This document shows positions 645-46,571 of a DNA stretch of 64,000 bases, one piece after another (within the stretch, counting starts at the first letter, position 1; each line of letters begins with the position of its first letter). A model generated the notes under the pieces. That model ran no database searches. It had not been told where the DNA came from and worked only from the letters and a program-made list of their open reading frames with translations. The stretch is taken from positions 890,963 through 954,962 of the forward strand of contig NZ_JAXMCX010000001.1 in assembly GCF_046349115.1 (NCBI RefSeq), in the 5' to 3' direction. A program made the translations under genes and the position numbers. The DNA is from Methylocystis sp. (lineage in GTDB: Bacteria; Pseudomonadota; Alphaproteobacteria; Rhizobiales; Beijerinckiaceae).

Positions 645-3233
645 ATGGCCAAAACCCCCGGAAAGCCCAGAGACCCGGCGCGGCCGACGCGCGCCAAGGC
701 GTCGAAGCCGGTGGTCGCGCCGCTCGCGCCGCATCTCGCGCAGCTGCTCAATCCGGCGCTCACGCCGGGATTCGGCGAGGCGCCCCAGGCGCCCTACGAC
801 GCTTCTTCGGTTCAAGGCCTCGATGAGGCGGACATCGATAAATACGCCATTGGCGAAGGGTTTTACGCGGGCGGCGCGACATCGGGAAGCGCCGCCCAGA
901 ACACCGGCGGGGTGCAGGCGACGGCCGACCGACTCGCCGAACTGCTGCGGCTCGGCGATCCCAATATTCGCGACAAGCAGCCCTGGGTCCCGCATCGGCC
1001 CGAGCGCCCGGAGAAATCCGAAGGCGGCGTCAGATTCGAGCTGGTCTCGGACTATACGCCGAAAGGCGACCAGCCGGCGGCGATCGACGAGCTGGTCAAG
1101 GGAATCACCGCGCAGGAACGCGATCAGGTGCTGCTCGGCGTCACCGGCTCCGGCAAGACTTTCACCATGGCGAGCGTGATCGAGCGCACCCAGCGGCCGG
1201 CGCTGATTCTCGCGCCGAACAAGACTCTGGCGGCGCAGCTCTATGGCGAGTTCAAGAGCTTCTTCCCGAAGAACGCCGTCGAATATTTCGTCTCCTATTA
1301 CGACTACTATCAGCCTGAAGCCTATGTGCCGCGCTCGGACACCTACATCGAGAAAGAATCCTCGGTGAACGAGCAGATCGACCGCATGCGCCATGCCGCG
1401 ACGCGCGCGCTGCTCGAACGCGACGACGTCATCATCGTCGCCTCGGTCTCCTGCATCTATGGCATCGGCTCGGTCGAAACTTATACGGCGATGACCTTCT
1501 CGGTGACGCTCGGCGAAAAGCTGGAGCAGCGCCAGCTCGTCGCCGATCTCGTCGCGTTGCATTACCGCCGCGTGCAGGCGGATTTCACCCGCGGCACCTT
1601 TCGGGTGCGCGGCGATACGGTGGATATTTTCCCGGCCCATTATGAGGACCGCGCCTGGCGCGTCGGCTTCTTTGGCGACGAAGTCGAGTCGATTTCCGAA
1701 TTCGATCCGCTGACCGGCAAGAAGACCGTCGATCTCGAATTCGTGAAGGTCTACGCCAATTCGCATTATGTCACGCCGCGGCCGACGTTGCTGCAGTCAG
1801 TCAAGGCGATCAAGGAGGAGCTGCGGGTGCGGCTCGACGAATTATATCGTTCGTCGCGTCTCGTCGAAGCGCAGCGGCTCGAACAGCGCACCCGCTTCGA
1901 TCTCGAAATGATGGAGGCGACCGGCTCCTGCGCCGGCGTCGAAAATTATTCGCGCTATCTCACCGGCCGCAAGCCGGGCGAGCCGCCGCCGACTCTGTTC
2001 GAATATCTGCCCGACAATGCGCTGGTCTTCGCCGACGAGAGTCATGTGTCGATCCCGCAGATCGGCGCTATGTATAAGGGCGACTTCCGCCGCAAGGCGA
2101 CGCTCGCCGAATATGGCTTCCGCCTGCCGTCCTGCATGGACAATCGGCCCTTGCGCTTCGAAGAATGGGACGCGATGCGGCCGCAGACCGTGGCGGTCTC
2201 GGCGACGCCGGGGAATTGGGAGCTCAATCAGACCGGCGGAATCTTCGTCGAGCAGGTCATCCGACCGACAGGGCTGATCGATCCGCAGGTCGAGGTGCGG
2301 CCGGCGCGCGCCCAGGTCGACGATCTCCTCGACGAAGCGCGGGCGACGGTGCAGATCGGCTATCGCTCGCTGGTCACGGTGCTGACCAAGCGCATGGCCG
2401 AGGATTTGACCGAATATCTGCATGAGAACGGCGTGCGCGTGCGCTACATGCATAGCGACATCGACACGATCGAGCGCATCGAAATCATCCGCGACCTGCG
2501 GCTCGGCGCCTTCGACGTATTGGTCGGCATCAATCTCTTGCGCGAAGGTCTCGACATTCCCGAATGCGGCCTCGTCGCCATTCTCGACGCCGACAAGGAA
2601 GGGTTTCTGCGCTCCGAAACATCGCTCGTGCAAACCATCGGCCGCGCCGCGCGCAATGTCGACGGCCGCGTGATCCTCTACGCCGATCAGATCACCGGCT
2701 CGATGAAGCGGGCGATGGACGAGACCAATCGCCGCCGCGCCAAGCAGGAAGCCTATAATCGCGAGAACAACATCACACCGGCGTCGATCAAGCGCGGCAT
2801 CGCCGACATTCTCGGCTCGGTCGCCGAGCAGGATCATGTAACGGTCGACACCGGCTATGACATCGCGCCCGGCCACAATCTCGCGGCGACGATCGCCGAT
2901 CTCGAGAAGCGCATGAAGGAGGCGGCGGCCGATCTCGCCTTCGAGGAGGCGGCGCGTATGCGCGACGAAATCCAAAGATTGCAGCGGGCGGAGCTGCTCG
3001 GCGAGGCGAGCCCGATGCTGCGCATCCAGCTCTCGCGTCAGGCCCGCGCGGGCCGTGGGGGAGGGGATGTTCCCGGCACGCGCGCGCGAAAGCCGACCGA
3101 CGCCGACATGGGGCCGCATAATTTCGGCGGCGGCGAAGCGCGGCCGCTGGGGCGCGCGCCGCCGCCACGTCCGGTCGGCCGCTCATCCGGTGGCAAGCCC
3201 GGCACGCGCACGGTGAAGGGCAAGCCGAAGTGA
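645..3233 (+). CDS. uvrB: Excinuclease ABC subunit B
   Basis: '[10 protein letters not shown]', '[15 protein letters not shown]', 'DESH', '[10 protein letters not shown]', 'QTIGRAARN' and a C-terminal UVR coiled coil; ATG at 645 preferred over ORF-track start 603. Confidence 0.98.
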
Positions 3234-3264
3234 GGCGCCTCCCGGCGGGGGCGATGGCGCGGCG

Positions 3265-4737
3265 TTACTCGACCGGCAAGGCGACGAAATGGGCGTCGCC
3301 CTGGCCGTTGGCGACGATCAGCAGCGCGGTCTTCTTGCCGTCGGTCTTCAGCGCCTTGACCTTCTTGACCACATCGGCCGGATCGCTGACCGCCTCCTGA
3401 TTGACCTCAAGCAGCACTTCGCCGGGCTGAAGTCGCTTCTCCGCCGCATCCGAGCGCGGATCGACCGCGGTGATGACGACGCCGCCCTTGACGGCGTCCT
3501 TGATCTGGAACCGCGCCCGCAACTCATCTGAGAGTCGCGACAGTTCAAGCCCCAGCACGCTCTGCGACGATCCGCCCGGGCTGTCGGACTTCTCCTTGTC
3601 GCCGTTCTTCGACGCGACTTTCTCGCCATCCTCGAGCCTGCCGAGCTTGACGGTCTTGGTCTGCTCCTTGCCGCCCCGCACGATGACCAGTTCGACATCC
3701 TTGCCGACCGGAGTCGCGGCGACGAGCTTAGGCAAATCGCGCGATTCCTTGATCGGCTTGCCGTCGAATCTGACGATCACGTCGCCGACCTTCAGCCCGG
3801 CCGGCTTTGACGGTCCCTTGTCGTCGACGCCGGCGACAAGCGCGCCGCGCGTCGCTCCGAGATTGAGCGTCTCGGCGATTCCGTCGTCGATATTCTGGAT
3901 GCGGACTCCCAGCCAGCCGCGGCGCGTCTCGCCGAATTGCTGCAACTGCCCGATGACCGGCTCAACCGTATTGGCCGGCGTCGCGAAACCGATGCCGACC
4001 GAGCCGCCGGAGGGCGACAGGATCGCGGTGTTGATGCCGATGACCTCGCCGTCCATGTTGAACAGCGGTCCGCCGGAATTGCCCTTGTTGATCGAGGCGT
4101 CGGTCTGAATGTAATTGTCGTAGGGACCGCTATCGATATTGCGATTGCGCGCCGAAACGATGCCGGCGGTCACCGACCCGCCGAGCCCGAACGGGTTGCC
4201 GACGGCGAGCACCCAATCGCCGACCTTGGCCTTGTCGCTGTCGCCGAACTTGACCGCCTTCAACGGCTTTTCGGGCTTCACTTTCAGGACGGCGACGTCG
4301 ACTTTCTGATCCTTGCCGAGAATTTCCGCCTTGAGCTTCTGGCCGTCGTTGAAAATCACCGTCACTTCATTGGCGTCGGCGATGACGTGATTGTTGGTGA
4401 TGACGATTCCCGAAGGATCGACCACGAAGCCGGAGCCCAGCGAACTTGACCTGCGCTGACGCGGAATTTCCGGCACGCCCTGGCCGCGCCGGCGGAAAAA
4501 CTCCTCGAAGAGATCGTCAAACGGCGCGCCGGGTCCGACTCCCGGCGGCAGCTGCGGGCCCTCGCCGCCCTTGTTGTGCTTGGCTTCGAAAGTCTGCGTC
4601 GCGGAAATATTGACGACGGCGTCCTGAACTTTCTCGGCGAGTTCGGACAGGGAATCCGGGCCTTTCGCGGCGGCTGGCGTCAATAATATCAGCAGGGCCG
4701 CAAAACCAGCGGCCACATAAGCCTGGAGCACCTTCAT
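3265..4737 (-). CDS. htrA: Do/DegQ (HtrA) family periplasmic serine endoprotease with two PDZ domains
   Basis: Signal peptide, 'LGSGFV', 'TNNHVI', 'IQTDASINKGNSGGPL' and two PDZ-like regions; start trimmed to the ATG at 4737. Confidence 0.95.
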   Translation of the reverse strand: MKVLQAYVAAGFAALLILLTPAAAKGPDSLSELAEKVQDAVVNISATQTFEAKHNKGGEGPQLPPGVGPGAPFDDLFEEFFRRRGQGVPEIPRQRRSSSLGSGFVVDPSGIVITNNHVIADANEVTVIFNDGQKLKAEILGKDQKVDVAVLKVKPEKPLKAVKFGDSDKAKVGDWVLAVGNPFGLGGSVTAGIVSARNRNIDSGPYDNYIQTDASINKGNSGGPLFNMDGEVIGINTAILSPSGGSVGIGFATPANTVEPVIGQLQQFGETRRGWLGVRIQNIDDGIAETLNLGATRGALVAGVDDKGPSKPAGLKVGDVIVRFDGKPIKESRDLPKLVAATPVGKDVELVIVRGGKEQTKTVKLGRLEDGEKVASKNGDKEKSDSPGGSSQSVLGLELSRLSDELRARFQIKDAVKGGVVITAVDPRSDAAEKRLQPGEVLLEVNQEAVSDPADVVKKVKALKTDGKKTALLIVANGQGDAHFVALPVE

Positions 4738-5034
4738 CCGATATCTCCAAAGATGAGAGGGAGCAGATATAGGCGCAAACGCCTTCGACAAAAAGAGGCG
4801 TCTCGGCTGGAGCTTCGGCGCGCGCTTTTGAAGCGGATATCTGCTCATTTGCATTTCTGTGGGCGCGAATTTTGCGGCGGAGTCGCCCCCAAATCGCGCA
4901 TATGAACGAGAGTCATTTTCCTTCGAGGCGCCGGTCGACGAAATTCTCGCTCTTGCGCGCAAGCTGATGTGATTGCGCGCCATTTACAGCGGACGACGAC
5001 CGCGCTCACCGTCGTCGAGGCCCGCGTTTGCGTT

Positions 5035-37902: not shown

Positions 37903-38142
37903 ATGAGGCCTCCACGATGACGCGCTATGCCGACACAGCGCCGGCGACGGTCCCTCGCTCGGTCGAGCGCGCGCAAGCGTTGCGCTGGAAACCGATTCTG
38001 CTCCTCCCGGACGTTTCGAACAAGTCGTCGCCGCGCTCGAGCTTCGCGCACTGGCGGCGCGGAGCTGCCAGCCTGCTCGAATTATGCTAAAATCACTCTC
38101 TGGCGCGCCTCGCGCCGGGCAAGTCAGCCCGAGGGGGCGACG

Positions 38143-38418
38143 ATGAAAAATGCGTTGTGTTCTTGCGTACCGCCGCCGGTTGGGTGGAGCGTCAACCGGC
38201 GAACGCATCCCGCGATCGCTCAAGCGATTTTCGCTCTGTCCAGCGACGCACGAAGTCCCGAAGCGATTTGGGAGACGCCGACGCCGGACGAATGGCGAAA
38301 GATTTCCGAACTCGTGGCCGAATATGTCGAGGATGGCGATTTCGCCTTCGACAATGGCAAATTCGCCTGGGGACCGTTCGAAACTCTTCGCCTATGGCCG
38401 ATGCGGCGCGATGGTTGA
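38143..38418 (+). CDS. Hypothetical protein
   Basis: RBS GAGGGGG; natural-looking composition, acidic and Trp-rich. Confidence 0.65.
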   Translation: MKNALCSCVPPPVGWSVNRRTHPAIAQAIFALSSDARSPEAIWETPTPDEWRKISELVAEYVEDGDFAFDNGKFAWGPFETLRLWPMRRDG

Positions 38419-38439
38419 GATAAGCCCAGTCGCCGGCGA

Positions 38440-39258
38440 TCAGTAAGGCGGGAACATCGGCGGCGGCGGGAAGGGACGCGGCATGAATCCATTGAGCTCC
38501 CGAGCGAATTGACGCTGGCGCGGCGGCGGAGCATGCGACTGCCCATTTGCGTTCCCGATAATTTCGCCGCTCTCGGTGACGACGATCCAGCGGCCGGCGC
38601 GCTCCTTGATGGCGATGACGCGCCCCACGCCGGGCACGACTTCGCCGGGTTCGACGCCGATCATGCCGCTGTCGGATTCAATCAGCGCGGCGCCCTGAAA
38701 TACGTCGCGCACTCTGTAGCCGCTCACCACTTTCGGGGCCGGCGCGATCGACTGGACGGGCGTCATGTCGATCTTGGCGCTCTCCAGCTTGGCGGCGCGA
38801 GCGACTTTCGCATCGGGCTTTTCTGACGGACGCTGCGGGGAGGCGGCCGCTTCCGACGCGCCGACGGCGGCCTTGTCCTGCGCAGGCGGCGGCGCGCTGG
38901 CGGCCTGGGCGCTGAGCCGGTCGGCCTGTTGCCGTTTCTCCACGGCGTCGAGTTTCGCGCGCAGCTCCTGCACTTCGCCCTGGAGAGACGCGATTCGATT
39001 TTTCGTCGCTTCGTCCAGCGCCGGAGTCGCCGCCTGGGGCGCACGCGCCTCGACTTTTTCGGTCGCCGGCTGTTTGGGACGGTCGGCGGGATAAAAATGC
39101 GTGGCGGCTACTCCGGCCAAGCCGATCGCAGCCGCGATCAGGCCATAGCGGAGCGGCCGACGCTGACGGCGATCGATGACGATTTCAACCGGCACTTTGG
39201 CCGGCGCGCGGCTCCCTTTCGGCTGCGGCGGCTCCGGCGGAATAATGAGGTCGTTCAT
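38440..39258 (-). CDS. Membrane-anchored hypothetical protein (TM, coiled coil, Pro/Ala linker, C-terminal beta domain)
   Basis: TM 'YGLIAAAIGLAGVAA', coiled coil 'NRIASLQGEVQELRAKLDAVEKRQ' and C-terminal 'GYRVRDV...GVGRVIAI...GRWIVVT'. Confidence 0.75.
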   Translation of the reverse strand: MNDLIIPPEPPQPKGSRAPAKVPVEIVIDRRQRRPLRYGLIAAAIGLAGVAATHFYPADRPKQPATEKVEARAPQAATPALDEATKNRIASLQGEVQELRAKLDAVEKRQQADRLSAQAASAPPPAQDKAAVGASEAAASPQRPSEKPDAKVARAAKLESAKIDMTPVQSIAPAPKVVSGYRVRDVFQGAALIESDSGMIGVEPGEVVPGVGRVIAIKERAGRWIVVTESGEIIGNANGQSHAPPPRQRQFARELNGFMPRPFPPPPMFPPY

Positions 39259-39374
39259 ACGCGAGTCCTGCCGTCGGAAACGAAGGAAATCGCAAGCTGC
39301 GCCTCAATCGCGGCGAAATGTCGTCAATCCTCGCCGGTGCGCGGCGAGCGGCGCGGCCGCGTATCGCCTGGCGA

Positions 39375-39815
39375 TTATTTCACCGGATACGGGGCGGGCC
39401 GGGCGAGCGGCGGCGGACCCGGCGACGCCGTGATCACCGTCAGGAGTCGCTCCATGAAGCAGTGCGAATCATATGGCTCGACGCCCCGGTTGCAATCTGG
39501 ATCGGGAATATAGAGCGGGGGCTGCAGCCTGTCGGAGAGGGCGGTGCAGACAGGGTCCGTATAGGGGCTTCCGACATTGTCCAACACGATCGGGTGGCCG
39601 CATCGGTCGACGGTCGGCGCCGGCGCCGCGCCTGCGGGCGTCGGCGCGGGGATCGCCTGCCTTTGCTTCGCCTCGGCGGCGCCGGACAGCGCGACCGCGA
39701 GCAGAATGGCGGCGAGCGCGCCGCTGTTGAGGCCGATCCAGGCGCCTTGAAGCTTGAGTCTTCCGACGCGCCCGGCCGAGGCCTTAAGTCGCGCGCGGTT
39801 CAGCGGGATGCTCAT
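39375..39815 (-). CDS. Possible secreted Pro/Cys-rich hypothetical protein
   Basis: Signal-like 'ALAAILLAVALSGAAEA'; four Cys; start uncertain. Confidence 0.5.
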   Translation of the reverse strand: MSIPLNRARLKASAGRVGRLKLQGAWIGLNSGALAAILLAVALSGAAEAKQRQAIPAPTPAGAAPAPTVDRCGHPIVLDNVGSPYTDPVCTALSDRLQPPLYIPDPDCNRGVEPYDSHCFMERLLTVITASPGPPPLARPAPYPVK

Positions 39816-40136
39816 GACGCTCCTCTCGAAATCGCGCGCCGGTCAGGATCGGCGGCGCCGTTCTCGCTCAGCCAATATAGCCGATATTCGGCCGCGCCTC
39901 GTCAAGACCGGCCTCTCCTCGGCACGACGTCGCTGCGGCGCCAAAAGCGCTTCCTCCACGGGAGCGTCGACCCAGCGTCCATTGTTGCGCGGCTGCCACA
40001 GTCGCCCAGAAAGCGCGCTTGGGGGGCTAAAAACCAGTCATATCCTTTGACTGTGTAGCAGGTTTCTTTCTACCAACTTGGCCTCAGGCGAATCTCGCCG
40101 CGCGCTCAAATTGATAACTCATTAGGAGGAAGGTAC

Positions 40137-40892
40137 ATGAAAAAGGCAATCCTTGCTGCCTCGGCCTTAGCGCTGATAGCCGGATCGGCGATGGCCGCCG
40201 ACCTTCCGTCTTACAAAGCGCCCCCGCCGCCCCCGCCGCCGCCGCTTATCACCTGGACGGGCCTCTATGGCGGTTTGAACTTCGGCGTCGGTTTTTACGA
40301 TACCAATTCGTCGAATGCGTGGGGCGCCGGCTTTAACAATCATGGCGGCAGCCGCGCGGGCGTCGTCGGCGGCGGCCAGATCGGCTACAATTACCAGGTC
40401 ACGCCGATGTTCCTCGTGGGCGTCGAGACCGATTTCCAGGGCACGAGCATCGGCTCCGGCGCCGGCGGCAACACCTACAACTGGTTCTTCGGCCTGCCTC
40501 CGGTGACGACGGCGACGCTGAACTGGTTCGGCACGGTTCGCGGCCGCGCCGGCCTGACGCTGCTCAATTCGAAGGTGCTGATCTACGGCACGGGCGGCTT
40601 CGCCTATGGCGAAGTGCAGCGCAACGGCTGGTGGAACCAGAACAGCGCGGTGCAGACGGGCTGGACCGTCGGCGGCGGCGGCGAGTGGATGGTCATTCCG
40701 AACTGGTCGCTCAAGCTCGAATATCTTTACACGCAGATCAGCGGCAACGGGAACAACAACGGCGGCTGGTTCTTCAACCCGGGCTGGGGCCTCAACAGCA
40801 CCAACAACCGCACGCGCTTCCACACGATCCGCGCCGGCGTGAACTATCACTTCAACTTCGGCGCCCCGGCGCCGGTGCTGGCGAAATACTGA
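40137..40892 (+). CDS. Omp25/RopB-type outer membrane beta-barrel protein
   Basis: RBS AGGAGG; 'MKK...AMAADLPSYKAPPPPP', 'WTGLYGGLNFG', 'GWTVGGGGEW', 'WSLKLEYLY' and 'RAGVNYHF'. Confidence 0.93.
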   Translation: MKKAILAASALALIAGSAMAADLPSYKAPPPPPPPPLITWTGLYGGLNFGVGFYDTNSSNAWGAGFNNHGGSRAGVVGGGQIGYNYQVTPMFLVGVETDFQGTSIGSGAGGNTYNWFFGLPPVTTATLNWFGTVRGRAGLTLLNSKVLIYGTGGFAYGEVQRNGWWNQNSAVQTGWTVGGGGEWMVIPNWSLKLEYLYTQISGNGNNNGGWFFNPGWGLNSTNNRTRFHTIRAGVNYHFNFGAPAPVLAKY

Positions 40893-40920
40893 TCGATTGC
40901 TTCGAGTAGATTGATCGAGG

Positions 40921-40952
40921 AAAGCCCGGCCCGACGGCCGGGCTTTTCTTTT
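40921..40952 (+). terminator. Intrinsic terminator of the omp gene
   Basis: AAAGCCCGGCC-cgac-GGCCGGGCTTT followed by TCTTTT. Confidence 0.88.
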
Positions 40953-41369
40953 GTCGACGGCTTTCTGTGAAGAATGGCGATCGTCGCGCCGCGGCCGGAT
41001 TTCGAAAGGCCGCAGGCGGCAGCGACGAAGGCGGCCAATCTTGCGGGCGGGTGTTCACGGCTGCGCCGCTTTTTTTCCAGTGTCGACGACGGCGCCGCGC
41101 TCAGCCTGACTTGCGCGTTTCGAACTGCGCAAGCAATCGACGGCGAATCCTCTGACAACCGAAATGAATCACGACATTGGGCTTATTGCGCCGAATGGCG
41201 CGCCTGAGGCGCCGATCAACTCCGTTGTCGGGGGAGCTTCTCAGCAGATTAATTTGGACGACGCCAGCTCAGGAGATCGGCCGGATGCTGACCTCGATGC
41301 GGTCGTGCGCCCATGCGCGAAATCGAAAGACTTCATTGGGTTCGCGCATCGATGCAGCCGATGGAGCGT

Positions 41370-41651
41370 TCACGGCTTCCGGGCGCTGATCGATTCGAGT
41401 TCGAAGCGGGTAGTTCTGAAAAATCCCCTTCCTCCCGCACGCGTTAGATATTTTTGGCCGATGGCTGAGCAAAGCAATTTGAACCAATCATCTTCGCTCA
41501 AAAGGGGGGGAAGGTTGCTGATATGCCCGATCGATCCGTCCGGTCGGAAACGGATGTGAACAAGAACAGGATTGGCGGCCTCGCTCTCATCGCCTTTTGG
41601 TGCGGTTGGCGACGTCTCGGCGCTGACGCGAAGTGAGCTGATTGCAGCCAT
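41370..41651 (-). CDS. 93-aa hypothetical protein downstream of a ModE-type box
   Basis: RBS GGTAGGAG; globular-looking core 'VLVHIRFRPDG...WF..L...GGRGFFR'. Confidence 0.65.
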   Translation of the reverse strand: MAAISSLRVSAETSPTAPKGDESEAANPVLVHIRFRPDGSIGHISNLPPLLSEDDWFKLLCSAIGQKYLTRAGGRGFFRTTRFELESISARKP

Positions 41652-41689
41652 CTCGTGTGGTCTCCTACCGCGGCTCTCAACCGCCGCTC

Positions 41690-41718
41690 ATCGTTAAGTA
41701 GTAAGTGTATATAACGAT
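41690..41718. promoter_or_regulatory. ModE/Mo-box-type operator 1
   Basis: ATCGTTAAGTA-GTAAGTG-TATATAACGAT compared with the ModE/MopAB consensus ATCGCTATATA-N6/7-TATATAACGAT: right half exact, and the outer CATCGTTA/TAACGATG is a perfect 8-bp inverted repeat. Confidence 0.8.
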
Positions 41719-42140
41719 GCTCCGTAAACAAGCTTAATTTTTAGGCGGTTTGTTTCGTTTGAAGGGGAAAATGACGCGGGGATTCTTCTGTCGCAGCTCA
41801 TCGTGGCGATCTTCTCGAAAAGCTGAGTTCCACCGGTCGGCCCTTGGATTGCCCGCCGTCGGCGCGTGCCGTCGAGCAATGATGTGGGGGGGGCCGTCTC
41901 GCACTTGCGAGTGAAAGACGCTCCGACCAATCGAAGCATCAGCAGCCCGTTGTTGCAGCGGTTCCGTGTCAGCTCTTCGCCGATCAATATTGAATCGGCG
42001 CTGACGCGACGGCCGATTCCTCGCGTCGAGTAAAACATGGGCGATTTGCCTGCGCGAACGACATAATGTTGCGGTTCGGCAACACTCATAAACAACTGAA
42101 AGAAGCTCGAATTATATGCTTGCGGCGCAGCCTCGGATCG

Positions 42141-42165
42141 CGGTGTATATATGAAATATATAGCG
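42141..42165. promoter_or_regulatory. ModE/Mo-box-type operator 2
   Basis: CGGTGTATA-TATGAAA-TATATAGCG, the same 25-bp CG..CG core with a 7-bp spacer; ends 30 bp before the TBDT ATG. Confidence 0.65.
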
Positions 42166-42194
42166 TATAATAAATACGCGACCGAGGGGCTCAA

Positions 42195-44549
42195 ATGGTT
42201 CGCATCCGAAAACTCCGTAAACGCAATATCGGCGCCGTCGGGGCGGCCGTTTCGCTCGTGGCGCTGCTTTGCGCACAGGGCGCGAGGGCGCAATCGACTT
42301 TGCCGACGATCACCATCGGCGCGAGCGGCGGCGAAAACGACGCCGCTCCTGCGCCTCAGTCCGGGTCACGCGGTCCAACCCCGAAGCGAAGTCCGATTAT
42401 CGGCGTCGCGCCGGAGTCGCCCTCGACGACCTATCGCGTCGATAGTCGGGGCATTCAACTTGCGACGGGCGGCGGCGGAACCAATCCAATCCGAGCGGTC
42501 GGCTATCTTCCATCCGTGGATGCGCCGCCGATCGATCCCTACGGACTTGCGAATCTACCCGGCAGCTTCAAAGGCATACGCATCCGCGGCGAGGTGAGCC
42601 AGCATGGCAACAGCATCACGCTCGTCGACGGACTGCCGATTAACGGCATCAATCCCGGACCTGGCTCGACGATGATGATCGACAGCGAAAATCTGTCGAG
42701 GATTGAACTCTACCAGGGACCCGTGCCGTCAAACATCAATTCCTACTTCACGCTGCCCGGGGTGATCGACACGCGCATCAGATGGAGTTCCGACAAATTC
42801 GGCGCCGAAGCCTCTCAGTCCGTCGGTTCGGTGAGTTTTCTGAGAACTTTTGCGCGCATCGACTCGGGGGCGTTCCTCAATGGCACGACCAAGTTCTTTC
42901 TTTCCGGCTCCTGGACGGACGCCCATGCCTGGCGCGGGCCGGGCAAAGCGCCGCAGGGAAAGGCCAGCTTCGCAGTGGGCATTGAAACGCGGCCGACCGA
43001 TTTTTTCGAGGCCAAGGTCTTCATCGCCAAGAGCAATTATAACGCCAATACCTACGCCGGTCTGAACTACAATCAGGTGACCTTCCTCGGCGCCAACCGT
43101 TTCTATAATTTCCTTCCCGTATCAAGCAGCGTTCCGGCCTGGGCCGTCAACTACTACAACTACAATATGCAGTCCTTCGACAGTTGGACCGCGCTCGGCG
43201 AATTCACGGTGAGGTTCAATGATGCGACGCGTCTCGTCGTCAAGCCCTATTATTTCCGGGAGGATGGATACTATCTCGACGGCATGGCGAACGGCATGGT
43301 TCGCAATTGGCTGATCAATCACGACAGCTACGGGGTCACGAGCGAGCTGCAATCGCGCATTCTGGAAACGGACGTCACGATTGGCCACTGGTATGGCGTG
43401 CAGAACCTGCCAGGACCGCCGAACGCCTGGCAGATGTATGCGCCGAACGCGTTTGGCGGATTGACGAACCCAAATTGGTCAATCCTCGCCCAGCAGACGG
43501 GGTCTCATGTCAATAACTCGGCCTATGGCGTCGCTACGCGTAATTTCGGGCCGCTGCGCGCCACCGGGGGCTTCCGCTATAATTGGGAGACGATGGCCGG
43601 CATAGACGAGCGCACGGCGACGGGACTTGGCGCATTTCCCTACAATCTGGCGCTCGCTCTGTCGCCAAGCATCATTCCGACGCGCAGCGTCGACAGCTTC
43701 ACCGTCGGAACGGCGCTGCCCTTCGGGGCGCTGAGCTACGACGTCACCGACAATCTGCAGTTCAGAGTAAGCGGCGGCGGCGGCTATGGCGGGCCCTCCT
43801 TCGATGTGTGGCCTGCCTATCAGCAGAACTCCGCCACTTTCCTCAAGAACGGATTAACCGCCAATCAGGTTTGGCGGTCGATGCGGCCGGAAACGGCGGC
43901 AATGGTCGACGCCGGCGCGCGTTGGACATTCGATGAATGGTTCGGAGCGGGCTATATCCAGCCGATCGCGTATTATTCGCGCAATCACCACAAGGCCGTC
44001 ATCTACGACCCCGGCATCGGAACCCCATATGGGCAGAACGTCGGCGAAAGCGAAAATTACGGCGCCCAGGCCATCGGGCAAATTTCTCCGATCGAGGGAA
44101 TCGACCTGTTCGGCTCCGTCGGCTATCAGCGCGCCGTCTTTGTCCAGGATCTTCCCTCCTTCGCGACCGCATCCTTGCTCACGCGCTTCAATAACCAGGT
44201 GAACGGACGGCAATTGCCTGACGTTCCCCACTGGATTTCAACGGTGGGCGGCAATCTGAGGTTTTTGGACTTTATCGTCACCCCGATCGTCCACATCGTC
44301 AGTTCGCGTTCCGGCGACACGACCGGGCTCCAGCCGATCGCCGGCTATGCGACGCTGGATCTAAATTTCGGCTATGAAAAGAACGTGGGCTTCGGGACGC
44401 TTAACGCCAGTCTGGCTGTCTTAAACGTCTTCGACACGGCCTATATCGGACAGATCAGCAACGGTTATTATCAGCAGACGTCGAGCTCGGGAATTTACTT
44501 TCCTGGCGCGCCGCGCACGATCATGGCGAAGATCGGATATCGCTTCTGA
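42195..44549 (+). CDS. TonB-dependent outer membrane receptor
   Basis: Signal peptide ending ARA; TonB-box-like 'STLPTITIG'; plug motif 'IRIRG...TLVDGLPIN'; 'NLRFLD...GYATLDLNFGY', 'VLNVFD' and 'PGAPRT'; C-terminal 'IGYRF'. Confidence 0.93.
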   Translation: MVRIRKLRKRNIGAVGAAVSLVALLCAQGARAQSTLPTITIGASGGENDAAPAPQSGSRGPTPKRSPIIGVAPESPSTTYRVDSRGIQLATGGGGTNPIRAVGYLPSVDAPPIDPYGLANLPGSFKGIRIRGEVSQHGNSITLVDGLPINGINPGPGSTMMIDSENLSRIELYQGPVPSNINSYFTLPGVIDTRIRWSSDKFGAEASQSVGSVSFLRTFARIDSGAFLNGTTKFFLSGSWTDAHAWRGPGKAPQGKASFAVGIETRPTDFFEAKVFIAKSNYNANTYAGLNYNQVTFLGANRFYNFLPVSSSVPAWAVNYYNYNMQSFDSWTALGEFTVRFNDATRLVVKPYYFREDGYYLDGMANGMVRNWLINHDSYGVTSELQSRILETDVTIGHWYGVQNLPGPPNAWQMYAPNAFGGLTNPNWSILAQQTGSHVNNSAYGVATRNFGPLRATGGFRYNWETMAGIDERTATGLGAFPYNLALALSPSIIPTRSVDSFTVGTALPFGALSYDVTDNLQFRVSGGGGYGGPSFDVWPAYQQNSATFLKNGLTANQVWRSMRPETAAMVDAGARWTFDEWFGAGYIQPIAYYSRNHHKAVIYDPGIGTPYGQNVGESENYGAQAIGQISPIEGIDLFGSVGYQRAVFVQDLPSFATASLLTRFNNQVNGRQLPDVPHWISTVGGNLRFLDFIVTPIVHIVSSRSGDTTGLQPIAGYATLDLNFGYEKNVGFGTLNASLAVLNVFDTAYIGQISNGYYQQTSSSGIYFPGAPRTIMAKIGYRF

Positions 44550-44643
44550 GGCGGCTCGTAGGGCGGCGAGCTCGACCAATGCGTGAGCCGGCGGCGCGGC
44601 AATGACCGCGCCGGCCTGCGGCGCCTAACGCAAGGCTGGGGTT

Positions 44644-45477
44644 TTAGACCGCGGACGCTTTGGTGTGAACGATCGTCCCGACATGCTCGCCGCGCAGCGC
44701 GGCGGTAAGTCGGCCCGGCACGAGACCGTTGACGACTTGCACATGTTCGAGGTGGCGAGCGGTCCGCATAACTTCGACGAGCGCCCGGTCGAATGGCAAT
44801 GGGCCTTCCTGTTGCGCGAGCTGCGCGGCGGTCGTCTCGCGGAGCAACTGCGCCTTTTCCCCGCCTGGCCCCTTGGGATCGGTCGTGTAAACGCCGTCAA
44901 CGTCCTCCACGATCGTCAGTCCGGCGGCGCCGAGCGCGTCTGCGAGCAGAAACGCGCCGGTATCAGCCTTGTGAGGCGGAATTCGCGAGGTCGGAAATTC
45001 ATGGTGGTGATAGGGAGGAAAAGCGCTGCCCACGACCGCTCGGGCGGCGGACAGGTGGATGGCGAGCCGACTTGCGATGGTCGGGTGCTCGATATAGGAG
45101 ACCCCCTCCGGCGCAAGCAACGACGCGAGTATGTGGCCGTTCTGGCCGGCCTCGTTGGCGGCGAGGGGGGCGAGCGACCCGACCGGCAGGCCGAGGTCGA
45201 GTCCAACGCTGTAGAGATGGCGCGCCCGCACGCCGGCGCCGGTGAGAATGAGCAGACGGTGCTCGGGCAGCAGCTTTCTGATCTCCTCCACGATCGGGAG
45301 GATCGCGTCTCGGCCGCGATCCATGATGGATCGGCCGCCGATCTTCACGACTTGCAACCACGGGAGGAGCCGGATCGGACGTCCGCCGGCGACCGGGCGT
45401 GTGAGCTCATTATCGAGGAGCGTCTGGCGCGCGAGCGGGGAAGCCACGTGCTTGATGCTATCGTCTGTATGGGTCAT
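44644..45477 (-). CDS. mosA: Molybdenum storage protein (MoSto) alpha subunit
   Basis: '[13 protein letters not shown]', '[14 protein letters not shown]' and '[11 protein letters not shown]...[16 protein letters not shown]' match the Azotobacter MosA sequence as I recall it; start trimmed to the ATG at 45477. Confidence 0.93.
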
Positions 45478-45488
45478 GGCGGAAACTC

Positions 45489-46301
45489 TTAGCGGGCTGT
45501 GATGATGGTGCCGACATGCTCCCCGCCGAGGGCGCGGGTCAGATTGCCGGGGATGAGGCCATTCACGATCTGCACCTGCGGGATATGGCGCGCAGCCTTC
45601 AGCAGATCGAGCACGGGGAATTCGATGATCGAGTCGTGCAGTCCCTGCGCCTTCATTTCGTCGACCGAAATTTTCGGGATGAATTTCGCGTTCTTGGACG
45701 TCTTCGGATTGGCGGTATAGAGCCCGTTCTCGTCCTTCACGAAAACCATCGCCTTGCAGCCGAACTGCTCTGCGATAAGGAAGCACCCCGCGTCCGTGCG
45801 GTAGGGCGGGATGACGCCATCGGGCGCGAGGCGCGTCCAGAGGCCGTAAGGCGGCATGCCGCTGAAAACCACGGCGTTCACCTCGGCGAGGTAGAGCGGC
45901 ACGGCCGAGAGCCCGGCGCTGGCGACGACGGAGATGCCATATTTCGCGAGGAGCTGACCGATCATCGCGGCGTTCTGATCGGCGACTGAGGCGCCGAGTT
46001 GCGTGAGCACGCCCGCGGGCAGATTAAGTCCCGCCGCGATCGAGTAGAGATGCCGGGCTCTTGTGCCGGCGCCGGCGCCGATAAGCATCTGGTGCGACTT
46101 GCGAACGGCGACAATCTCCTCCACCAGCGGGTAAAGCGCCGCGCGGCCGCGGTCGATGACGCTTTGTCCCCCGATCTTGATGACCGTCGCGTCCGGGAGA
46201 ATGCGATAGTCCGCCGCCGCCTCCGCCGCCGCCAAAAGCTGCGGGTCGCTGAGCGACCGCTGCATCAGGAGCGCCTCGAGTTCTGTCGTCGTATTGGCCA
46301 T
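45489..46301 (-). CDS. mosB: Molybdenum storage protein (MoSto) beta subunit
   Basis: '[22 protein letters not shown]', '[19 protein letters not shown]' and '[13 protein letters not shown]' match Azotobacter MosB as I recall it; paired with mosA. Confidence 0.93.
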
Positions 46302-46495: not shown

Positions 46496-46571
46496 TGGTG
46501 CCGGTTGCAGGATTCGAACCCGCGACCTACTGATTACAAATCAGTTGCTCTACCAGCTGAGCTAAACCGGC
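46496..46571 (-). tRNA. tRNA-Thr(TGT), 76 nt
   Basis: Cloverleaf on the minus strand: anticodon loop TTTGTAA, GGTTCGAATCC, 3' CCA. Confidence 0.97.

Follow-up and report, generated by a model that had tools for sequence, protein, structure and literature searches.

In many soils and fresh waters, molybdenum (Mo) is a limiting nutrient for nitrogen fixation. In the textbook view, Mo crosses the Gram-negative outer membrane via porins, and the route at nanomolar levels has never been settled. The question of a dedicated route is raised by a 64-kb stretch of DNA (in the following referred to as the window; C1:890963-954962) within the 3.33-Mb assembly of a Methylocystis-like, nitrogen-fixing methanotroph (metagenome-assembled genome, MAG; 63% GC, completeness 99.99%), which is present in wastewater and activated-sludge metagenomes. 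The window contains the gene of a TonB-dependent receptor, here named TBDR-A, which is preceded by a candidate operator (Mo-box) of the regulator ModE and faces the mosA and mosB genes of the Mo storage protein MoSto. Does this receptor belong to the ModE regulon, and what does it carry? The analysis indicates that the 784-aa protein is a predicted TonB-dependent outer-membrane transporter of a rare family within the ModE regulon, and that Mo-repressed, TonB-dependent uptake of a Mo (or tungsten, W) species is its probable function. ModE binding, repression as the direction of control and the substrate are those parts of this reading that we infer. All features named in a first-pass annotation of the window were recovered, either at identical coordinates or at most 2 nt off.

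Mo-boxes in the divergent promoter region

To locate Mo-boxes, each position of the genome was given a weighted score against the palindrome ATCGnTATATA-N-TATATAnCGAT. The 543-bp region between the receptor gene and the divergent orf93, which encodes a conserved small protein, contains two sites of the type CGnTATATA-N6/7-TATATAnCG (Table 1), in agreement with the two ModE-type boxes in a single region of about 540 bp that had been proposed before. Box 1 is located 38 nt upstream of the orf93 ATG. Box 2, the core of which had been placed at 42141-42165 and 30 bp in front of the receptor, extends slightly further to both sides and ends 28 nt before the receptor ATG (42195). Genome-wide, Box 1 has the highest score and Box 2 the fourth highest, about five sites in the entire genome reach a score of at least 14.5, and no further site with a score of at least 13 occurs within the window. 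The sites of this genome typically consist of a strong right half, TATATA[A/G]CG, a weaker left half and a 7-nt spacer. The local form common to the top sites is ATCGTTATGTA-N7-TATATAACGAT, to which Box 1 fits almost exactly, being near-identical in form to the sites in front of an operon starting with the genes g289 and DUF2478 (C2:57524) and in front of modE (C2:689935).

The genome encodes a ModE protein with an HTH_1 and two TOBE domains, which scores 96.7 bits against TIGR00637 (below the cut-off of 98.5), so that the proposed control does not fail for lack of the regulator. The same motif is found at the genome's own mod genes, i.e., at mop-modBC and the adjacent porin gene and upstream of modE.

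Table 1. Positions of the features around the receptor gene, numbered from the first nucleotide of the window.
Feature	Position	Strand	Sequence	Basis and remarks
orf93, conserved 93-aa small protein	41370-41651	-		Open reading frame (ORF); Box 1 upstream
Mo-box 1	41690-41718		ATCGTTAAGTA-N7-TATATAACGAT	Candidate ModE operator, orf93 promoter
Mo-box 2	42139-42167		CGCGGTGTATA-N7-TATATAGCGTA	Candidate ModE operator, receptor promoter
TATAAT hexamer	42166-42171	+	TATAAT	Perfect match, read from sequence; abuts/overlaps the 3' end of Box 2; 24 nt before ATG
TBDR-A, TonB-dependent receptor, 784 aa	42195-44549	+		Plug match, predicted fold
mosA, MoSto alpha, 277 aa	44644-45477	-		E 1.5e-142 to 2OGX chain A, residues 1-271
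mosB, MoSto beta, 270 aa	45489-46301	-		E 1.3e-146 to 2OGX chain B, residues 1-269
tRNA-Thr(TGT)	46496-46571	-		Directly upstream of mosB; ARAGORN, Rfam

The TATAAT hexamer at the 3' end of Box 2 is likely the -10 element of the receptor promoter. A box that overlaps this hexamer so close to the ATG would occupy a repressor-type position, as does the operator of E. coli modA. ModE may also act as an activator, in which case the receptor would be produced when Mo is plentiful and would import something for molybdoenzymes or export-related functions. E. coli ModE does activate some promoters, such as moa, dmsA and napF, but the overlap of Box 2 with the sole TATAAT corresponds to the position of a repressor, and this geometry is kept in three relatives, making activation very improbable here. 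Neither the Mo cofactor (Moco) riboswitch nor any other Rfam family matched across 41000-42400.

A further element of the same promoter is an inverted repeat, TGTTGC-N6-GCAACA (42067-42084), about 55 bp upstream of Box 2, which is shared by the receptor promoters of all four Methylocystis genomes. In the genome studied here, it has four exact copies; the others are located near outer-membrane beta-barrel protein genes and sdhC, one of them directly after a stop codon. The repeat may function as a regulator site or form a hairpin. It was also considered as a sigma-54 promoter or an upstream activator sequence for NifA, a reading that was rejected by eye as the spacing does not fit.

TBDR-A is a predicted outer-membrane transporter

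The TonB-dependent receptor noted earlier downstream of the second box was found to be a 784-aa protein with plug and barrel. The Pfam Plug domain matches residues 94-178 with 28.4 bits (weak, above the cut-off of 23.9), and PF00593 is recorded on TBDR-A orthologues. The AlphaFold model (pLDDT 81.4, pTM 0.83) displays a folded N-terminal plug inside a barrel, and model and fold search together indicate the 22-strand type of TonB receptors. Foldseek returned TM-scores of 0.70-0.83 to PqqU, YncD, FhuA, FecA and Fiu at 12-16% identity and E-values down to 4e-32, PqqU/YncD being the best structural match (TM 0.70/0.82). By sequence, no match in the PDB was obtained at E below 0.01. The N-terminus, MVRIRK...AQGARAQ/STLPTITIG, comprises a signal peptide and a segment, TLPTITIG, that resembles a TonB box (identified by eye), the C-terminus ends in GYRF and thus in phenylalanine, and the genome has two TonB_C genes.

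Distribution of the family and conservation of the boxes

A pattern scan over 185,579 species genomes yielded 36 loci of the receptor family. Its hosts belong to the Alphaproteobacteria (Methylocystis, Methylosinus, Methylocapsa, Rhodoblastus, Beijerinckia, Magnetospirillum), the Betaproteobacteria (Rhodocyclus, Azonexus, Rivihabitans, Thiobacillaceae, Gallionellaceae, Parasulfuritortus) and the Gammaproteobacteria (Thiodictyon, Ca. Thiodiazotropha), with one spirochaete MAG in addition. In most of the loci, Mo-boxes precede the receptor gene or the head of its operon. Three other Methylocystis genomes keep Box 2 at exactly the same distance of 28 nt from the ATG and have a second box 16-18 nt before a divergent luciferase-like gene. 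Sites scoring at least 14 within 500 bp upstream of the receptor occur in Methylocystis borbori, Rivihabitans, two Rhodocyclaceae and Magnetospirillum. In further loci, the box is located at the head of the receptor operon, the first gene of which encodes a Peripla_BP_2 protein in Methylosinus, Methylocapsa, Thiobacillaceae, Parasulfuritortus and Thiodictyon and a second TonB receptor in Rhodocyclus and Rhodocyclales. Counting sites with a score of at least 13.5, the promoter zones of the module contain 0.49 boxes per kb, compared with 0.025 per kb outside these zones in the same loci and 0.005 per kb throughout the genome studied here, equivalent to an enrichment of about 20-fold at module promoters (35 loci). 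The sites have thus not been lost in front of orthologues but are kept in all three proteobacterial classes, either upstream of the gene or at the operon head. This comparative evidence strongly supports control of the receptor by ModE, which we regard as very likely.

The left side of the divergent region has a different history. Window positions 41098-41258 and 41386-41744 match positions 1275-2005 of the corresponding locus in the closest relative (L046, 87% identity), a stretch that carries orf93, a box and the 3' remnant of a LysR gene and is located about 8 kb from the receptor of that locus. In the window, the LysR 3' end is present as a 161-nt remnant at 41098-41258. As far as this alignment indicates, a rearrangement has left a scar in the left part of the divergent region; no paralogous DNA copy of the region occurs elsewhere in the genome. 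Orf93 itself, which lacks any Pfam or NCBIfam match, had been taken for an orphan. It belongs to a family of nine protein clusters in a database of 5.8 billion proteins, its homologue in the closest relative is 70% identical and has a Mo-box-like site in the same position, a paralogue occurs in the same genome (C2:595009-595230) and M. borbori (L009) has a further copy downstream of its receptor gene. Read from its sequence relatives, orf93 is a real small gene.

A scar of this kind, with its LysR remnant and without the operon that the relative has on this side (see below), might suggest that the boxes are relics of rearrangement or chance AT-rich palindromes and that the receptor is not Mo-regulated in this genome. 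However, the genome-wide ranks of the two sites, the conservation of both boxes in relatives and the enrichment at module promoters leave this explanation hardly any weight.

A MolA-like importer is the usual partner and has been lost in this genome

The first-pass annotation had overlooked the usual partner of the family, a type II ATP-binding cassette (ABC) importer resembling MolA of Haemophilus influenzae. In about 30 of the 36 loci, the receptor is linked to Peripla_BP_2, FecCD and ABC genes, and recurrent neighbours further include a luciferase-like oxidoreductase, a bacterial globin, a di-haem DHOR protein, a DUF2478 protein, a ModA-like protein, ModE and a TOBE protein. The best PDB match of the partner binding protein was 4PAG, an unnamed protein (E 7e-77). 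H. influenzae MolA was the second match for the protein of one locus (L044) and the third for that of the closest relative, with E-values of 8e-16 and 2e-18, respectively, ahead of BtuF; 6B2X and 4HN9, the chains of which are named as iron or siderophore binders, have scores that differ from that of MolA by no more than a few orders of magnitude.

In the closest relative, the divergent region drives an operon of luciferase-like, Peripla_BP_2, FecCD and ABC genes on the side opposite to the receptor. This operon is gone in the genome studied here: tblastn at E 1e-5 detected no homologue anywhere in the assembly, and no remnant was present in 38000-42250, so that a MolBC-A-like partner linked to the receptor is missing. 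The organism seemingly lacks type II (siderophore/B12/haem-type) ABC importers of this kind despite several TonB-dependent receptors. The only inner-membrane route under Mo-box control that appears to be left is ModA-ModBC. Loss of the type II importer and retention of ModABC suggest that the cargo of the receptor can be used by ModABC and ends as periplasmic molybdate, as we infer from this pattern.

These results bear on the possibility that the receptor imports a chelate of iron or another metal, or a cofactor, that is needed more under Mo starvation, ModE control then reflecting metabolic remodelling rather than Mo transport. Siderophore and pyrroloquinoline quinone (PQQ) receptors are the fold neighbours of TBDR-A, Peripla_BP_2/FecCD systems usually carry chelates, and a parallel exists in the TonB-dependent siderophore receptors of Azotobacter vinelandii, which are switched on via VnfA1 only without Mo and vanadium. 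However, the genome lacks both an alternative nitrogenase and an importer of the FecCD type that could take a chelate further inward, and the clusters contain ModA-like, TOBE and ModE genes. Neither non-ribosomal peptide synthetase nor siderophore biosynthesis genes were found within 10 kb of the receptor in five annotated loci. In addition, the partner protein is nearer to MolA than to BtuF, even though 6B2X and 4HN9 score close to MolA, and due to its resemblance to MolA a chelate is not needed to explain a FecCD-type partner. Import of a chelate is therefore considered improbable.

Mo uptake by the receptor also has to be weighed against scavenging of W, or a lack of discrimination among group-VI oxyanions, with the cargo destined for W/Mo formate dehydrogenases instead of nitrogenase and MoSto. 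This is consistent with Methylosinus, Methylocapsa and Methylocystis LW5, where the Mo-box region is shared with a divergent gene for a 958-aa formate-dehydrogenase-like molybdopterin enzyme. Moreover, ModE responds to tungstate as well as molybdate, and H. influenzae MolA binds tungstate too. On the other hand, the receptor always co-occurs with MoSto and almost always with nifD in the family sample described below, the FdhA orthologue of this genome is encoded far off (C1:5528-8398), and neither TupA nor WtpA was recognised in the loci. We consider this alternative unlikely, if somewhat less so than import of a chelate.

Several observations were made on the loci of two of these relatives. 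In Methylosinus sporium (L043) and Methylocapsa aurea (L047), the ABC ATPase gene and the receptor gene belong to one operon and flank the genes of two conserved proteins (about 244 and 237 aa) without Pfam match, and boxes occur on both sides of the region shared with the formate-dehydrogenase-like gene. Beside its receptor, M. aurea has a second cluster (L047 12365-21575) of NifD/K-like Oxidored_nitro, TonB receptor, Peripla_BP_2, FecCD, ABC and TonB genes with Mo-box-like sites in its divergent promoter (L010 16472-16500 and 16767-16793). This cluster resembles the A. vinelandii operon Avin_39870-39890, the expression of which is restricted to conditions lacking Mo and vanadium.

Other Mo-box loci in the genome

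The mod locus (C2:61737-67053; L002/L006), the genes of which were assigned in this lower-GC region from Pfam scans of listed ORFs, has modC, modB and mop (68 aa) as minus-strand genes. Two Mo-box-like sites (C2:64139-64205) are located between mop-modB-modC and a plus-strand gene for a 572-aa protein of the phosphate-selective porin family Porin_O_P, which converges on modA. The putatively Mo-box-controlled Porin_O_P protein looks like an anion porin and, next to TBDR-A, is a second candidate for the passage of molybdate across the outer membrane of this organism.

Another TonB receptor belongs to a second Mo-box unit, which had also escaped the first-pass annotation and is located beside modE (C2:685101-691250; L004 102-6250). 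Here modE is separated by a Mo-box (L004 4936-4964) from a divergent operon for a 433-aa solute-binding protein, a di-haem DHOR protein (formerly DUF1111) and an 810-aa TonB-dependent receptor. The latter is 42% identical to the receptor heading the Mo-box clusters of Rhodocyclus tenuis, in which the solute-binding and DHOR proteins are kept as well. A third unit (C2:55283-57552; L002) consists of a Mo-box 40 bp before an operon for g289 (289 aa, no Pfam match), a DUF2478 protein and a CxxCxxCC-domain protein; gene order and box are kept in three other Methylocystis genomes (in L046 at 2656-4947), about 6 kb from the receptor. PDB searches with g289 and the 433-aa solute-binding protein gave no useful assignment.

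The neighbouring MoSto genes

The convergence of the receptor gene on an intact mosB-mosA pair was borne out: both products match A. vinelandii MoSto over the full length, with a gap of 94 bp between the receptor gene and mosA. With cross-matches between alpha and beta reaching only about 1e-54, the two represent a pair of subunits of the amino-acid-kinase fold orthologous to MosA and MosB; a 277-aa gene was likewise called at the mosA position of a Logan contig. The locus had further been interpreted as a module for capture and storage of Mo, which was not supported as a conserved unit. The receptor gene and mosBA converge and are therefore not co-transcribed, the box scan revealed no Mo-box before mosB or in the tRNA-Thr region, and mosBA lies beside the receptor only in this genome and in the relative of 87% identity (L007/L046) but not in the other 34 loci, including two from Methylocystis at 85-86% identity. 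As judged from these loci, the neighbourhood is a lineage-specific juxtaposition, backed by phyletic co-occurrence alone.

This co-occurrence was determined in 151 genomes of the GTDB family, of which 8 encode the receptor, 14 MosB and 18 nifD. MosB is present in all eight receptor genomes, which gives a naive P of 5e-10 and P = 0.010 within nifD-positive genomes, both uncorrected for phylogeny, and nifD is present in seven of the eight. The genome studied here has nifD but neither AnfG nor VnfG, and hence Mo-nitrogenase only. For this reason, a demand of alternative nitrogenases for vanadium or extra iron cannot explain the Mo control here, and the corresponding reading was rejected for this genome.

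Proposed pathway

Based on these results, the following sequence of events is proposed. When Mo is plentiful, molybdate-bound ModE would occupy Box 2 and shut the receptor promoter because the box overlaps the TATAAT hexamer, and would also bind to Box 1 before orf93. When Mo is scarce, ModE would leave and the receptor would be made. Powered by TonB-ExbBD, it would then carry a Mo species over the outer membrane, which may be sub-nanomolar molybdate or organically bound or otherwise modified Mo, W also being possible. In most relatives, the cargo would be handed to the co-regulated MolA-like Peripla_BP_2/FecCD/ABC importer, often accompanied by the luciferase-like oxidoreductase and the globin, while in this genome periplasmic Mo would be taken up by ModA-ModBC, which is likewise preceded by Mo-boxes. 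The imported metal would finally supply Mo-nitrogenase, Moco enzymes and storage in MoSto.

Several points weigh against this interpretation. A search for RNA-seq runs yielded wastewater DNA metagenomes alone. At the promoter, both boxes deviate from the consensus, Box 1 in its left half and Box 2 at its outer positions, and the consensus scan called no clear -35 element on the plus strand, which is why no sigma-70 promoter was called there. No box was found upstream of the orthologues in Rhodoblastus or Beijerinckia. With respect to the substrate, the similarity of the partner protein to MolA is moderate and its top PDB match, 4PAG, has no named ligand; the siderophore, PQQ and copper receptors among the fold neighbours have no bearing on what is transported. 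In Methylosinus and Methylocapsa, the receptor operon is divergent from the formate-dehydrogenase-like gene for a Mo/W enzyme. Finally, the phyletic association is uncorrected for phylogeny, with the receptor occurring in only five genera. Taking both sides together, Mo-repressed uptake of Mo or W by TBDR-A remains the reading that we favour as probable.

A more specific version may be put forward tentatively. The luciferase-like, globin and di-haem DHOR proteins could process a ligand. TBDR-A may then be the entry of a dedicated, ModE-repressed and TonB-energised pathway in MoSto-bearing diazotrophs of three proteobacterial classes, which takes non-molybdate Mo, e.g., an organic complex, reduced Mo or thio-Mo, that the luciferase-like, globin and DHOR proteins convert to molybdate for the MolABC-like importer or ModABC.

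Comparison with known systems

If this more specific version is correct, TBDR-A would represent the first TonB-dependent transporter shown for Mo, and the view that Mo passes the outer membrane solely through porins would have to be revised. The study defines a rare receptor family that combines a conserved candidate ModE operator with a MolA-like partner and co-occurs strictly with MoSto, and the genome analysed here, in which the receptor is kept after loss of the type II importer, constitutes a natural experiment. As some of the carriers can be cultured (M. sporium, M. aurea, Methylocystis sp. LW5 and R. tenuis), the question is directly testable.

Among TonB-dependent transporters for substrates other than iron, i.e., BtuB (B12), OprC (copper), ZnuD (zinc), PqqU/YncD (PQQ) and LutH/LanA (lanthanides), the 22-strand barrel with plug and the control by a sensor of the metal concerned are comparable to the system proposed here. 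However, TBDR-A is only 12-16% identical to such proteins and has no match in the PDB at the sequence level. To our knowledge, no TonB-dependent transporter has been experimentally shown to carry Mo.

The partner importer of the relatives is closest to MolBC-A of H. influenzae (HI1470/HI1471/HI1472), a type II importer for molybdate and tungstate: the Peripla_BP_2 protein matches MolA over BtuF, and FecCD and ABC genes are present alongside. An importer of that kind is gone from the genome of the window. We know of no dedicated outer-membrane receptor for MolBC-A, nor are we aware that it is under the control of Mo-boxes. With respect to storage, mosA and mosB are full-length counterparts of A. 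vinelandii MoSto (2OGX, 4F6T and others), and it is only the gene neighbourhood that is new and lineage-specific.

In A. vinelandii, three TonB-dependent receptors are encoded in ABC operons, one of them with a NifD-like gene, and are expressed only in the absence of Mo and vanadium via VnfA1 (PMC9542535). The combination of TonB receptors with ABC genes, expression under Mo starvation and a MoSto-bearing diazotroph as host is similar to the situation described here. However, control in A. vinelandii is indirect, via the sigma-54 activator VnfA1, and tied to alternative nitrogenases, whereas that of TBDR-A is apparently direct, via ModE boxes, in a genome whose sole nitrogenase is the Mo enzyme. 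No Azotobacter protein occurred among the receptor homologues found.

A full-text literature search, which did not cover subscription journals, retrieved no paper in which a TonB-dependent receptor is connected with the Mo-box or the ModE regulon. We are also not aware of any such receptor among the experimentally studied members of classical ModE regulons. The closest regulatory counterparts are the ModE (MopA/MopB) regulons of E. coli, Rhodobacter capsulatus and A. vinelandii and the modA operator, with which the present system shares the type of palindrome, the promoter-overlapping position and a ModE protein composed of a helix-turn-helix and a di-TOBE part. In contrast to these classical regulons, the gene that is controlled here encodes an outer-membrane TonB-dependent receptor, so that a predicted TonB-dependent transporter of the outer membrane would join the ModE regulon as a new kind of member.

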